Shown here piece by piece: positions 5,612 to 45,518 of a stretch of DNA of 64,000 bases (position 1 is its first letter; each line of letters begins with the position of its first letter). The DNA lies in NCBI GenBank assembly GCA_045127215.1, contig JBGVPV010000074.1, forward strand, positions 16,302-80,301. Reading direction: 5' to 3'. A program made the translations under genes and the position numbers. Origin of the DNA: Eubacteriales bacterium. GTDB taxonomy: Bacteria; Bacillota; Clostridia; Oscillospirales; CAG-272. A model generated the notes under the pieces. The model did no database searches. It saw nothing but the letters and a program-made list of their open reading frames with translations, and was not told the origin of the DNA.

Positions 5612-8449
5612 TTATCGAGCAATTTCTTCCATAATGTAGGCTTCGAGGATGTCGCCAACCTTGATATCGTTAAATCTGTCAAGTCCGATACCACACTCGT
5701 AGCCCTGAGCCACTTCCTTAGCGTCGTCCTTAAATCTCTTAAGCGAGGAGATCTTATCCTCAAAGATAACGATACCGTCACGAACTACGCGGATCATTGC
5801 GGAACGGATTACCTTACCGTCCTGGATATAAGAACCTGCGATAGTACCAACGTTAGGAACGTGAATGGTCTGTCTTACTTCAGCGTGGCCAAGTATTACT
5901 TCCTTGAACTCAGGAGCAAGCATACCCTTCATAGCGTCGGTTATCTCGTTGATACAGTCATAAATTACACGGTAGGTACGGATATCAACGTTCTGTCTTT
6001 CAGCGCTATCGATAGCAACCTTATCGGGACGAACGTTAAAGCCTACGATAATTGCGTTGGAAGCCGCCGCAAAGGTTACGTCACCCTCACGGATTCCGCC
6101 TGCCGCTGCGTGAATTACGCAAACCTTGACTTCATCGTTGGAGATCTTTTCAAGCGACTGCTTTACAGCCTCCGCAGAACCGCCAACGTCTGCCTTTACG
6201 ATTACGTTGAGCTGCTTTACGCCGTCTGCGATCTGAGCAAAGAGATCGTTGAGGTTTGCTCTTGCGTTTGCCTTGAACACCTCTTCCTTTGCCTTCTCAC
6301 GTCTCTGATCTGCAAGCTCTCTTGCCATTCTCTCGTCGGCAACTACGTTGAACTCGTCACCGGACGAAGGAACTTCTGCAAGACCGATGATCTCAACGGG
6401 AACTGAAGGACCTGCCTCCTTAAGCGTTCTGCCGTTGTGGTCGGTCATGGCTCTTACGTGACCTACGGACGTTCCTGCGATAACGATATCGCCACTTCTG
6501 AGCGTACCGTTCTGAACGAGCACGGTTGCAACAGGTCCGCGACCTTTATCGAGCTTAGCTTCGATTACGATACCCTTAGCGCGACGCTTAGGATTAGCCT
6601 TAAGCTCCTTGACCTCGGCTACGAGAAGCACGTTTTCAAGAAGATCGGAAATTCCATAGCCAGTCAGCGCGGATACGGGTACGCAGATAACGTCGCCGCC
6701 CCATTCCTCGGGAACGAGATCATACTTTGTAAGCTCCTGCTTGACCGCATCGGGATTTGCCGTGGGCTTATCCATCTTGTTTATAGCTACGATTATATCA
6801 ATACCAGCCGCTTTTGCGTGGTTGATAGCTTCTACCGTCTGAGGCATGATACCGTCATCAGCCGCAACAACGAGTATTGCGATATCCGTTGCCTGCGCAC
6901 CTCTTGCACGCATTGCTGTGAACGCCTCGTGTCCGGGGGTGTCAAGGAATGTAATATCCTGACCGTTTGCTTTTACGCGGTACGCACCGATGTGCTGAGT
7001 AATACCGCCTGCCTCGCCTGTGGTGACGTTGGTGTGACGGATAGCGTCGAGTATAGAGGTCTTACCGTGGTCAACGTGACCCATAACGCATACTACCGGC
7101 GCTCTGGGAACGAGAGTTTCCTCGGTGTCCTCCTGCTCGTCGAACAGCTTTTCCTCAATGGTTACGACTACTTCCTTAGTGACGGCAATGCCCATCTCAT
7201 CCGCAACTATTGCCGCGGTATCGTAGTCAACGGTCTGGTTTACGGTTACCATCATTCCGAGCATCATAAGACGCTTAACTACCTCAGCAGAGGTCACCTT
7301 AAGTCTGGATGCGAGATCACTTACCATGATCTCATCGGGAAGCGTTACGCTTGTAGGTGCTTTTGTCACGGGCTGAGTTGACTTCTTACCCTTGAACTTA
7401 TCCTTACCGCGAGCGCCGCCAAAGCCACCCTGCTGCATACGATTATTCGCGCCCTGCTTCTTTACTCTCTGGTTGCCGCCGCGTACGTCAGCAACTGCAT
7501 CGGGAACGAAGGTATCAAGTCTTTCATCGTACTTGGAAAGGTCAACGGACTCCGCGCGCATATCAACGACACGTGTCGCACCTCTCTGCTTGGGAGTGCT
7601 GTCAGTTCCCTTAACGGTCTGACTGCGTACGATAGGCTGAGGCTTGAATTTTTCAACGGGGCCTCTGGACTGCTTATCTTCCTTATCCCAGCCGCCTGCA
7701 TGCTCTCCGCCTCTCTGTCCCGGCTTGCCCGCAGGTCCTCTTTGAGCGTTATTACCGCCAAAGCGATCGTTGCGGTTATTTTTCGCGCCGTTCTGTCCGA
7801 ATCCGCCGCGTGTTTCGGGCTTGGGAGTGCTGTCAAATCTGCTGTCGAGCTTCTGTCCCTGAGCCTGACGCTGAGAGCTTGTCGCCGCGCTTACCTGAGG
7901 CTTTGCAGCCTTCATCTCCGCGGTCTTTGATACGGGAGCGCTCTTGGGCTGTTCATTACGAGGCTGAGCGTTCTTAGGCTGCTCGGTCTTGGGCTGAGCA
8001 TTCTTGGGCTGCTCCGGCTTCTGAGGAGCAGGCTTTACCGCTGCGGGCGCAGTCTTCTCCTTTGCCTGTACCTGTTCGGTATTCTTGGGAGCTACGGCAC
8101 TCGCGCTGTCCGCACGCTTCTGCTCCGCAACCGTCTTTTCCTGTACCGCGAGAGCGGCAGGTGCCGCCTCGGGCTTTACTTGCTCTGCCTTCTGAGGCTC
8201 CTTTTCTACGGGCTTCTTGGACGGAATATAAGTAACTCCGTCAAGATAGTTACCGATGTTATCTATCTGATTATTTCTTGTAAGAGTATCGAAAAGCATC
8301 TCAAACTGAGCTACCTCAAGTGTCGCCTGAGATTTGAGAGCAATACCCTTATTTGCAAGCACGTCAAGAACGTCCTTGCTCTTCATATTCATGTCCTTTG
8401 AAAACTGTGTTACCTTCAATAAGTTGGTAGTTGCTGCCATATTTTGCAC
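5612..8449 (-). CDS. infB: Translation initiation factor IF-2
   Basis: G domain [23 protein letters not shown]. Pro/Gln/Lys-rich repetitive N-terminal region. Lies in the nusA-infB operon context. Confidence 0.97.
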
Positions 8450-9125: not shown

Positions 9126-10151
9126 TTATTCAGACTTTATGTCTATCTTAAAGCCGGTAAGTCTTGCAGCAAGGCGAGCGTTCTGTCCTTCCTTACCGAT
9201 AGCGAGGGAGAGCTGATCCTCATCAACGATTACTCTGCAGCTTCTCTCTGCCGTAAAGGTTACGGAACGCACCTCGGCGGGAGCAAGTGCCTCAGCAACG
9301 TACTCCTCGGGGATCTCGCTGTACTTAACTATATCTATCTTCTCGCCGCGAAGCTCGTCAACGATACCCGCAATTCTCATTGCGTGGTTACCGATACAAG
9401 CTCCTACTGCATCGACGTCCTCGTCACGTGACATAACGGCGATCTTGGTTCTCGAGCCTGCCTCACGGGAAATACCCTTAACAAGCACGACGCCGTCGAT
9501 GATCTCGGGGATCTCAAGCTCGAATATTCTGCGAACAAGTCCGGGGTGTACACGGGAAAGAGTAACGAGAGGTCCTCTTGCCTCTTTATTTACCTCGGTT
9601 ACAAATACCTTTATCTTATCGCCTACTGTGAAGGTCTCGCCGGGGATCTGCTCGCTCTTGATAAGAGTTGCGTGTCCTGTTCCGGTATCGAGAAGAACGT
9701 TGCCGTTATCGGAAAATACCTTACTTACGGTTGCGGTGATTATCTCTCCGCGCTTGCTCTCGTAAGCGTCCTGCATAGCCTTTCTCTCACCCTCACGGAT
9801 GCCCTGAATAATAACGGATTTTGCAGCAGCCGCGCTGAGTCTGCGGAAGTTCTTGGGCTTTACCTCAGTCTCAACCATCTTACCGAGCGTGTTTCTTCTG
9901 CTGAGCGCCTTTGCGTCTGCAAGAGAGATCTGGCACTGAGGATTTTCTACCTCCTCAACTACCTCCTTCTGCAAATAAACTCTCATATCCTCCTTAACGG
10001 GATCGATAGCAACGCGCATCAAAGTGCTGTTGCCGTATTCTTTTCTGAGAGCGGAAAGGAGAGCCGCCTCGATCTTTTCGAGCATATATTCCTTGGGGAT
10101 GCCCTTTTCCTTTTCCAGAAGGTCGAGAGCCACGAAAAATTCCTTGTTCAT
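9126..10151 (-). CDS. nusA: Transcription termination/antitermination factor NusA
   Basis: N-terminal domain, S1 and two KH domains (GKEGQNARLAARLTG). Operon context supports the call. Confidence 0.95.
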   Translation of the reverse strand: MNKEFFVALDLLEKEKGIPKEYMLEKIEAALLSALRKEYGNSTLMRVAIDPVKEDMRVYLQKEVVEEVENPQCQISLADAKALSRRNTLGKMVETEVKPKNFRRLSAAAAKSVIIQGIREGERKAMQDAYESKRGEIITATVSKVFSDNGNVLLDTGTGHATLIKSEQIPGETFTVGDKIKVFVTEVNKEARGPLVTLSRVHPGLVRRIFELEIPEIIDGVVLVKGISREAGSRTKIAVMSRDEDVDAVGACIGNHAMRIAGIVDELRGEKIDIVKYSEIPEEYVAEALAPAEVRSVTFTAERSCRVIVDEDQLSLAIGKEGQNARLAARLTGFKIDIKSE

Positions 10152-24536: not shown

Positions 24537-24541
24537 CAAAA

Positions 24542-24580
24542 ATCCCGACGGATATTACACTACCCGTCGGGATCTTTTAT
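24542..24580. terminator. Terminator hairpin after aroQ, directly abutting the transposase stop codon
   Basis: ATCCCGACGG-12 nt-CCGTCGGGAT followed by CTTTTATTT. Confidence 0.7.
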
Positions 24581-25093
24581 TTATTGTTCATCTACATACA
24601 ACTCATCAAATTGCCAACGCATCGGGTTTTCGTAAATATAACGCAAATGTTCTTCATAGTCTTCCCTATTCCGAATAATGTGGTCATACGAACGATATTG
24701 CCAAATATTTTCCCCACATTCTTTATTACAAAATCTTTTAAACGTAGACACGAATTTTGAAGATGTCGAATTTTGAATTGTAGGGACCGGCGTCCTCGAC
24801 GGTCCATTTTCTTTTCCCTTGATCCACAATAAAATATGGATATGATTTGGCATAATAACATAAGACTCTACGGATAAATTGTGATAAAAATCATTAAGTT
24901 GGCGTATGTATTTATCTGCAAATTTCCCATATCGCGTCAATTCGTTTTTTGGACCGTCGAGGACGCCGGTCCCTACAATATGAGAGAGAACACATCGTCT
25001 TTCCTTAGTACATATCGTTAAAAAAACCACACAATTATCATTATAATCCGCGCCACTCAGACGCATTGTTTTTCTATATTTAAAATTATCCAT
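24581..25093 (-). CDS. REP-associated tyrosine transposase-like protein (IS200-like HUH/Y1, RAYT type)
   Basis: HUH motif PNHIHILLW. C-terminal RSYDHIIRNREDY..YIYENPMRW block. Single gene without IS ends. GTAGGG-hairpin repeats lie in and around it. Confidence 0.8.
   Translation of the reverse strand: MDNFKYRKTMRLSGADYNDNCVVFLTICTKERRCVLSHIVGTGVLDGPKNELTRYGKFADKYIRQLNDFYHNLSVESYVIMPNHIHILLWIKGKENGPSRTPVPTIQNSTSSKFVSTFKRFCNKECGENIWQYRSYDHIIRNREDYEEHLRYIYENPMRWQFDELYVDEQ
24780..24805 (+). repeat. REP-like hairpin inside the transposase ORF (GTAGGGACCGGCGTCCTCGACGGTCC)
   Basis: GTAGGG foot, 6-bp stem GGACCG/CGGTCC and 10-nt loop. Encodes GPSRTPVPT on the minus strand. Confidence 0.9.
24951..24976 (-). 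repeat. REP-like hairpin inside the transposase ORF, the exact reverse complement of 24780-24805
   Basis: GGACCGTCGAGGACGCCGGTCCCTAC. Encodes VGTGVLDGP on the minus strand. Confidence 0.9.
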
Positions 25094-25260
25094 TTAATCA
25101 CCCATATTATTATAAGGCAAATCGGCAGAGAAAAGAGCCCTCTACCGATTTCTAATCTGTAATTTCCATTTCAAAAATAACAATGAAATATACGATGGTT
25201 TCATACTGCCGCTCTCCCACAAGGGAAAACTCACGTGATACGCCCTCAAATCTCATAACG

Positions 25261-35202: not shown

Positions 35203-35228
35203 GTAGGGACCGGCGTCCCCGACGGTCC
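35203..35228 (+). repeat. REP-like hairpin (GTAGGGACCGGCGTCCCCGACGGTCC)
   Basis: One mismatch (in the loop) to the intragenic copy at 24780-24805. Confidence 0.85.
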
Positions 35229-35261
35229 AAGCCTGTAATAAAGTAACTTTTACATAGAAAT

Positions 35262-35287
35262 GGACTGTCGAGGACGCCAGTCCCTAC
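35262..35287 (-). repeat. REP-like hairpin, inverted partner of a doublet (GGACTGTCGAGGACGCCAGTCCCTAC)
   Basis: The stem is changed to GGACTG/CAGTCC, a compensatory pair change relative to GGACCG/CGGTCC. 33-nt spacer containing GTAACTTT. Confidence 0.85.
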
Positions 35288-38003: not shown

Positions 38004-38026
38004 GTAGGGGCGACCATTGGTCGCCC
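38004..38026 (+). repeat. REP-like hairpin (GTAGGGGCGACCATTGGTCGCCC)
   Basis: GTAGGG foot overlapping the stem GGGCGACC/GGTCGCCC. Confidence 0.8.
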
Positions 38027-38053
38027 GTTTTTGTTTTCATAAAGGTATTTTTC

Positions 38054-38077
38054 GGTGGGAGCAAGCCCCCGCCCTAC
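38054..38077 (-). repeat. REP-like hairpin (GGTGGGAGCAAGCCCCCGCCCTAC)
   Basis: CCCTAC foot. Related to the GGGAGGAGCAAGCCCCTCCCCTAC copies at 45079 and 51917. Confidence 0.75.
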
Positions 38078-45078: not shown

Positions 45079-45518
45079 CGGGAGGAGCAAGCCCCTCCCC
45101 TACGGCGTGATAACATAATGCGTTGTAGGGACAGGCGTCCCCGACTGTCCGTTCGGGCGTAAATGTTACTTTATGACCGTAAGGGGCGTCGAGGACGTCG
45201 CCCCCTACAACGTATAACATTATTTATCCGTAGTGGCGGATTCTATATCCGCCAATTTTAATATAAATGTTACTTTAAACCCATGCGGGAGGCGAAACGC
45301 CTCCCCTACAATGTGCAACATTATTTATCCGTAGGGGTTAGCGCCTACGACAACCCGAATTGTAGGGGGCGACGTCCTCGACGCCCCATTACGATATAAA
45401 TGTTACTTTTTGCCCACTCGGGAGCATATTGAATGCTCCCCTACGAAGAATAATGTTATCTATCCGTAGGGACAGGCGTCCCCGACTGTCCGTTCGGGCG
45501 TAAATGTTACTTTATGAC
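45079..45518. repeat. Array of nine REP-like GTAGGG-hairpins in alternating orientation with conserved spacers
   Basis: Hairpins at 45079-103(-), 45125-150(+), 45183-208(-), 45230-253(+), 45285-309(-), 45331-356(+), 45362-387(+), 45420-444(-), 45466-491(+). Spacers carry TAACATTATTTATCC or TAAATGTTACTTT. 45125-45177 is identical to 45466-45518. Confidence 0.9.

Follow-up and report, generated by a model that had tools for sequence, protein, structure and literature searches.

An inverted pair of in-frame REP hairpins encloses the HUH codons of a RAYT-like gene and its relatives in Clostridia

Repetitive extragenic palindromic (REP) sequences have previously been found inside the genes of REP-associated tyrosine transposases (RAYTs, also termed TnpAREP). 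Quentin et al. 2018 (BMC Genomics 19:475, PMC6006769) described REPs inserted in frame in the tnpAREP genes of subclass 2.4, whereas full-text searches of the other main RAYT, REP, and REPIN papers gave no such case. The proteins of this subclass contain a variable insertion of short repeats between beta3 and alphaC and an 8-aa insertion in the N-terminal half, which the authors treated as a small protein domain; both insertions have been modelled as peripheral. The subclass signature consists of NH[IFV]H, WQ, and YIxNNP, with a median length of 194 aa and no tail domain, while Table 1 of the same paper gives Y---NP as the signature of class 2 TnpAY1. Its members are reported mainly from Cyanobacteria and Bacteroidetes. 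Here, we describe an open reading frame (ORF) of 170 aa at 24581..25093, on the minus strand of a 64-kb stretch of DNA from a Eubacteriales bacterium (contig JBGVPV010000074.1; the whole stretch is called the window below). The ORF starts with ATG, is predicted from profile and structure matches to encode a RAYT-like (TnpAREP-like) Y1 HUH transposase, and contains two REP hairpins in frame. An earlier note on this DNA had supposed that in-frame REPs in a RAYT gene were undescribed, a claim that has to be withdrawn in view of the passages by Quentin et al. summarized above. Since the 170-aa protein largely fits the subclass 2.4 signature, the core phenomenon has already been described, and by its sequence the window gene fits a new subclass-2.4-like RAYT from a large clade of Clostridia.

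The 26-mer GTAGGGACCGGCGTCCTCGACGGTCC occurs exactly at 24780-24805 on the plus strand and at 24951-24976 on the minus strand, so that the two copies are perfect mutual reverse complements. Copy 1 (site 1, 24951..24976, minus strand) encodes VGTGVLDGP, residues 40-48, and has its GTAGGG foot on the sense strand. Copy 2 (site 2, 24780..24805) encodes GPSRTPVPT, residues 97-105, and has its foot on the antisense (plus) strand. The 145-nt spacer between the copies holds the HUH codons H84-I85-H86 (24836..24844, minus strand), as read from the ORF translation and the alignments A1 and A2. Folded as single-stranded DNA (ssDNA) on the strand that begins with GTAGGG, each copy forms a 6-bp stem with -9.9 kcal/mol (z = -4.1 to -4.4). 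The 26-mer has the 5' GTAG foot and the G+C-rich stem-loop of 20-40 nt that characterize GTAG-type REPs. It is found six times in the window, twice in the gene and four times outside genes, versus 0.00 expected from 100 shuffles. The extragenic copies differ by one mismatch (35203), by two compensatory mismatches (35262, minus strand), and by three mismatches each, compensatory plus one loop base (45125 and 45466). These observations support the assignment of both in-frame 26-mers as true members of the GTAG-footed REP family of this genome. The coordinates, frame, peptides, HUH position and extragenic copies given in the earlier note were thus all reproduced, and its placement of the 26-mers in a GTAG-footed REP family agrees with extragenic copies that shuffling does not produce.

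The protein contains the motifs MPNHIHILLW (H84/H86) and DHIIR...YIYENPMRW (Y152), and H84, H86, and Y152 are invariant across alignments A1 and A2. The Y152 codon (24638..24640, minus strand), within YIYENP, specifies the residue proposed as the catalytic tyrosine. Its counterpart in the alignment with E. coli TnpAREP is Y115, the catalytic residue of that enzyme. The match to Pfam Y1_Tnp lies just over the cut-off of 23 (23.7 bits, E = 5.7e-5), and NCBIfam NF047646 (REP_Tyr_transpos) matches residues 70-160 only, with 62.6 bits (E = 3.6e-17), which misses the equivalog cut-off of 80. Among solved structures, the nearest in sequence is that of E. coli TnpAREP, 4er8_A (E = 5.7e-8). The same chain ranks first in a Foldseek search with the predicted model (template modelling score 0.49-0.50), above the TnpA proteins of ISDra2 and IS608; the model itself is of moderate quality, with a predicted local distance difference test score (pLDDT) of 69. 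The 4er8 alignment pairs residue 160 of the 170 query residues with residue 123 of the 165 in the chain and ends there; the C-terminal autoinhibitory extension (the E. coli E161 region) is absent from the 170-aa protein. The RAYT-type Y1 HUH identity proposed in the earlier note is therefore borne out by Pfam and by 4er8 in both sequence and fold, and the putative enzyme may, as RAYTs do, bind and cleave its REP as ssDNA. Site 1 lies in a predicted loop joining strand 1 to the first long helix, where model confidence is low. Site 2 lies in the loop joining the HUH strand to the next helix, where pLDDT is below 50 at residues 96-104; in the 4er8 alignment it adds 11 residues that E. coli TnpAREP lacks.

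Searches with the 170-aa protein gave 4007 relatives in a 90% cluster collection (E<=1e-5) and 14,250 among 50% cluster representatives (E<=1e-3). An exact look-up gave no record of the protein itself. A scan of GTDB species representatives returned at least 519 loci, from which 80, with 44-80% identity, were kept for analysis; these come from metagenome-assembled genomes (MAGs) of gut or rumen Clostridia, mainly Oscillospiraceae and Acutalibacteraceae. The in-gene inverted hairpin pair is a trait of this family. Among 81 sequences, there are 68 in-gene inverted hairpin pairs that enclose the HUH codons, always at the same two predicted loops and with the GTAGGG feet pointing outward. Their spacers measure 133-190 nt, and 67 of the 68 have a length of 3n+1. 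Most of 62 full-length homologues in the same identity range have an inverted repeat of 24-32 nt across the HUH motif. Both feet are present in 72 genes, of which 54 have two perfect 6-bp stems of matching type and nine have two perfect stems that are unlike, always by compensated pairs; in the other nine, the hairpins are degenerate or of a different geometry. One or both feet are missing from another seven genes. The in-gene hairpins fall into nine stem types and several loop classes, and more distant genes have wholly different hairpins at both sites, such as GGGGCGATTCACGAATCGCCC and GGGGCGGATAATATCCGCCC, with the GTAGGG foot constant.

The relationship can also be read from the proteins. 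In cluster representatives with 37-50% identity, the two segments form pairs of reverse-complement translations, including VGADAHIGP/GPMWASAPT, VGAGHPAGP/GPAGCPAPT, and VGAIHESPE/RAIRESPLR, with a mean of 6.97 compatible residues out of 9 versus 4.33 out of 9 for cross-protein pairs. The proposals that residues 40-48 and 97-105 would vary between homologues, and that the two segments would be reverse complements of each other at the DNA level, both hold, the latter in most genes. Five loci (L007, L061, L067, L068, and L078) contain a pair of RAYT paralogues a few kb apart, each paralogue having its own hairpin class, for example a long-loop class beside the GGGGCGATTCACGAATCGCCC class. A plasmid collection yielded four distant homologues with 26-33% identity, and no in-gene hairpin pair was found in the three of them that were examined. 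One outgroup RAYT, from a Leptolinea plasmid (L084; AP024711.1, 1086-2434; 29% identity), belongs to a classical flanked REPtron with GTAGGGGCGGATnGCATCCGCCC arrays on both sides and no REP in the gene. The GTAGGGGCGGATnGCATCCGCCC hairpin class occurs in-gene in some Clostridia homologues, those of the VGADIIRP type.

The conservation of the hairpins has been examined at the nucleotide level in 13 close homologues. Third-position identity in the hairpin codons averages 0.93 and is 1.00 except in two edge codons, compared with 0.46 in codons outside the hairpins whose amino acid is conserved (Mann-Whitney p = 4e-7). Because the third codon positions within the 26-mers are fixed, the constraint acts on DNA or RNA and not on the peptide; peptide conservation as an explanation has been ruled out by this synonymous-site test. 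The hairpin sequence varies between homologues, and the two in-gene copies change together. The unit that is always kept is the local hairpin and not the pairing between copies, and long-range pairing as the primary constraint has been ruled out by the nine genes with unlike, individually perfect hairpins. Single-sided stem changes were found in two genes only (L006 and L017). Both are G.U wobbles on the sense strand, and two such changes are too few to decide between RNA and a DNA strand.

The in-gene hairpins are also related to the REPs around the genes. Among 40 long-loop REPs in the flanks, 24 agree in stem type with the local gene, versus 9.0 +/- 3.1 by permutation (0 of 5000 permutations). 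A match between the in-gene hairpins and the local REPs, as the earlier note had anticipated, is thus borne out as a tendency near the genes but not as dominance in the window, where the ACC stem of the gene is shared by only one or two of the 14 extragenic hairpins. In L039 and L021 the cognate REP also flanks the gene, in inverted orientation. In three homologues with intact ORFs (L052, L074, and L076), the two loops are without hairpins and a foot-out REP doublet lies directly beside the gene, at 5998-6134, 7385-7525, and 9804-9944, respectively, with spacers of 85-89 nt. Evolution of the two in-gene copies is concerted, both between them and with the extragenic REPs nearby.

Tandem duplication occurs at both sites, and some genes have had a hairpin replaced by one of another class. 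In-frame tandem multiplication is seen in many homologues, with 1-6 units at site 1 and 1-8 units at site 2; the units measure 24, 27, 33, 42, or 48 nt and their boundaries vary by lineage. Chimeras with unlike hairpin classes at the two sites have been identified in P0142, L055, L063, and L067. In L081 (1270-1320; protein P0194), the inter-site HUH segment is gone, and what remains is GTAGGGACCG, then 17 nt, then CCCATC. This locus is a deletion derivative with its end points at the hairpins and resembles a decayed pseudogene. The protein P0157 is an apparent chimera of two RAYTs, in which a RAYT of the VGADSISAR/RADMESAPT class extends up to the second hairpin foot and then runs directly into the N-terminal part of a RAYT of the VGTGVLDCP class. 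This arrangement could result from recombination at the REP foot or from a chimeric assembly.

Based on these observations, we consider it somewhat probable that the in-gene hairpins are the cognate REPs of the RAYT, lying within its coding sequence and maintained as a match to the REP family. The REP pair of a REPtron would have been relocated from the flanks of the gene into two tolerant loops of the ORF, and the hairpins would be tolerated by the protein because both loops are presumably peripheral. The enzyme may recognize the in-gene hairpins as ssDNA, as it would the extragenic REPs, in which case the copies would be repeatedly re-copied or replaced, or else selected for recognisability. 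A process at the DNA level, either selection for recognition or copying and replacement mediated by the enzyme, would keep the two copies alike and in agreement with the REP family. As the swaps take place between unrelated classes that share only the 6-nt foot, this process would be site-specific and not homologous recombination. The hairpins may plausibly also provide the gene with binding sites in cis through which expression or activity is damped, and their position in the gene would keep the enzyme and its substrate class co-inherited.

Several points weigh against this interpretation. We infer binding, cleavage, and autoregulation alike from sequence. The concerted evolution could be due to ordinary gene conversion instead of the action of the enzyme, and selection could act on the local hairpin as RNA rather than DNA. 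The enrichment of own-type REPs is partly due to REPs that immediately flank the genes. In the window, the ACC stem is present at 35203 and nearly so at 35262, and the cognate REP family may be small there or may be served by other paralogues. Lastly, Quentin et al. 2018 (PMC6006769) regard the in-gene insertions as probably neutral.

A more specific version, that the in-gene pair is a selected cis module, is possible but considerably less probable. Here, the enzyme would bind its own hairpins in DNA or mRNA and so limit its own production, and a swap of hairpin class would re-set the class of REP that is propagated. If this were true, each of thousands of genes would carry the sequence of its own substrate, and RAYT-REP specificity could be decoded by reading the family as a natural table of enzymes and their hairpins.

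Alternatively, the hairpins may be neutral passengers, that is, two REPs that inserted without a frame shift into permissive loops of an ancestral RAYT gene and are now unrecognised and functionless, which we regard as unlikely. Both sites are peripheral loops of low model confidence, and Quentin et al. 2018 (PMC6006769) argue that the variable region is remote from the sites of DNA binding and catalysis. In-frame REPs are found in unrelated genes as well (Di Nocera 2013, PMC3733652), and L052, L074, and L076 have lost their hairpins with the ORFs still intact. On the other hand, neutrality does not agree with the invariance of the synonymous hairpin sites against ~54% third-position divergence in the rest of the gene, nor with local stems that are perfect in 63 of 72 genes with compensated changes. 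The two copies, moreover, co-vary with each other and with nearby REPs, and passive drift cannot yield unrelated hairpin classes at the same two sites.

It is less likely still that the hairpins act primarily as an mRNA element, in which the local hairpins or a 30-bp duplex lower translation or trigger RNase III and the resemblance to REPs is secondary. In the predicted minimum free energy fold of the mRNA segment (-91.5 kcal/mol, z = -10), the two copies pair as a perfect 30-bp helix, and both single-sided stem variants are wobbles on the sense strand. There is also a precedent, as the transposase mRNA of IS200 is under hairpin control. This control is discussed in PMC3733652. However, the unlike stems in nine genes break the long duplex while the local hairpins stay perfect, identical hairpins are found outside genes, some of them after terminators, and the hairpin-less homologues hold a REP doublet beside the gene and not in it. 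A model with two local RNA hairpins fails to explain the conservation of the foot, because the invariant GTAGGG foot pairs only in the long-range duplex.

A rearrangement switch, suggested in the earlier note, in which recombination between the inverted copies would invert or delete the 145-nt HUH segment and turn the enzyme off or on, is very improbable. The perfect inverted repeat of 26-30 bp around the catalytic segment and the loss of exactly the inter-site segment in L081/P0194 speak for it, but the 75 complete homologous genes examined all proved collinear, with no inverted form among them, in consensus assemblies, which cannot show minority forms. An inversion would also scramble the reading frame, and the sole deletion variant, L081, resembles a decayed pseudogene. 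The further suggestion that the in-gene doublet seeded the extragenic doublets finds no support, since the extragenic spacers are of 2-163 nt and unrelated to the gene. Least probable of all is a role of the loops VGxGVxDxP and GxSRTxxPT as protein, for example in contacting the hairpin with the DNA palindromy as a by-product: site 2 does directly precede the helix aligned with the hairpin-contacting helix of E. coli TnpAREP (K82, R78), but synonymous positions are fixed, radical residue changes result from stem changes, the loops are predicted to be disordered, the region is modelled as remote from DNA by Quentin et al. 2018 (PMC6006769), and no rationale at the protein level accounts for the exact reverse complementarity of two unlike peptides.

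The 14 additional hairpins of the window, with GTAGGG or GTAGTG feet, are all intergenic and belong to several stem and loop classes; the RAYT gene has no GTAGGG-footed hairpin in the several kb of the window to either side of it. A foot-out inverted doublet of the hairpin class of the gene (stems ACC and ACT, 33-nt spacer) is located at 35203..35287. An intergenic array at 45080..45491, which resembles a bacterial interspersed mosaic element (BIME), holds GTAG-footed hairpins, about 10 in number, which alternate in orientation and represent at least six stem and loop classes; they are joined by the conserved linkers TAAATGTTACTTTA within foot-out pairs and ATAACATTATTTATCC between pairs. A AAAGTAAC(T)TTT core like these linkers is seen in the 35203-35287 doublet and in L034. 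Two intergenic GTAGGG hairpins of other classes are found within 38004..38077, at 38004-38026 (plus strand) and 38054-38077 (minus strand). The remaining hairpin classes of the window equal the in-gene hairpins of other family members, and further RAYT paralogues are probably present elsewhere in the genome. One such case is the REP GTAGGGGCGACCATTGGTCGCCC at 38004-38026, which corresponds to the peptide pair VGATIGRP/GRPMVAPT of the family member P0236 and so suggests a matching RAYT paralogue elsewhere in the genome.

The RAYT gene lies among the housekeeping genes aroE/K, aroQ, DUF1934, and galT. The aroQ, galT, and aroE/K neighbourhood is shared by none of the 80 homologous loci, and L065 is the sole locus with any neighbour likeness, a weak DUF1934 match of 41% identity, so that the synteny comparison is uninformative on vertical descent. 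The G+C content is 31.5% for the gene without the 26-mers, 73% for the 26-mers, and 48% for the window. By its composition, the gene looks foreign or mobile, though it is without insertion sequence (IS) ends in the window. Upstream of the gene, 15 nt 5' of the ATG, there is a conserved element at 25109..25148 (minus strand) that consists of a hairpin, TCGGTAGAG..CTCTGCCGA, followed by TATAAT. In the alignment, this element is kept in L001, L003, L005, L006, L010, L015, and L039, and by analogy with what is described for IS200 it looks like a terminator or insulator plus a promoter. In L015 and L039, a cognate REP is located directly upstream of the element. A stem-loop, CCCGACGG..CCGTCGGG, at 24538-24578 lies between the convergent aroQ and RAYT genes and is probably a bidirectional terminator common to both. 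An Rfam search of the sequence gave only chance matches, far under the gathering scores.

This family bears on the assignment of RAYTs to REPs and on the spread of REPs. The genes carry their presumed substrate in two copies, and the REP class can be read from the gene, and even from the protein, since the two peptides are mutual reverse-complement translations. Thousands of natural, putative enzyme-substrate pairs are thus available for studies of specificity, of autoregulation, and of how hairpins are replaced. In many "hypothetical" proteins of gut Clostridia, the G+C-rich motifs of the kind of VGTGVLDGP and GPSRTPVPT are features of the DNA and not domains, and the in-gene repeats are spots of truncation, expansion, or chimerism in homologous sequences. 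In outline, the arrangement is no surprise to a RAYT specialist; its paired, co-varying form and its scale make the family a practical resource.

By comparison with known systems, the IS200/IS605 elements share the fold and the catalytic motifs with the protein described here, and their sub-terminal hairpins serve as recognition sites. Those hairpins, however, are outside the gene and on one strand, whereas IS ends, tnpB, and multi-copy identical elements are all absent here. The classical REPtron (E. coli yafM/TnpAREP; Nunvar 2010, PMC2817692; Ton-Hoang 2012, PMC3333891; Messing 2012, PMC3479197) is closer. It likewise combines a Y1 HUH enzyme with GTAG-footed hairpins and an inverted cognate REP pair linked in cis, and extragenic inverted doublets and BIME-like arrays are common to both. 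In the present gene, the pair is inside the ORF with no flanking REP in the window, and the tail of E. coli TnpAREP (~25-40 aa, autoinhibitory) is missing, as is a match above the NCBIfam equivalog cut-off. Like REPINs (Bertels and Rainey 2011, PMC3116915), the in-gene pair consists of two inverted REPs able to form one long hairpin, but its spacer is 145 nt of essential coding sequence and not short and variable, and no extragenic doublet carries it.

The closest likeness in signature is to the subclass 2.4 TnpAREP, or Group 4 RAYTs (Bertels 2017), as judged from the published signature. The present protein has NHIH and IWQ and no tail, both sets of REPs are long and GTAG-footed with GGG/CCC at the stem base, and the post-HUH insertion with repeats, the insertion in the N-terminal half, and the in-frame REPs are all present here. 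The differences from the published description are that the Y motif here is YIYENP and not YIxNNP, which many of its relatives do have, and that the clade here consists of gut Clostridia (Oscillospiraceae and Acutalibacteraceae MAGs). In the texts as available, Figure S10 apart, the N-terminal insertion is not described as a REP, nor as the reverse complement of the post-HUH REP; neither are the co-variation of the two copies across classes and the frozen synonymous sites. In-frame palindromes are known elsewhere, in the Rickettsia palindromic elements (RPEs) and in GTAG/CGTC REPs (PMC3733652), and are similarly tolerated in surface loops. There, the host genes are unrelated and the sites scattered, whereas here the REPs reside in the very gene that encodes their presumed mobilising enzyme, and the sites, the orientation, and the pairing are fixed throughout the family.

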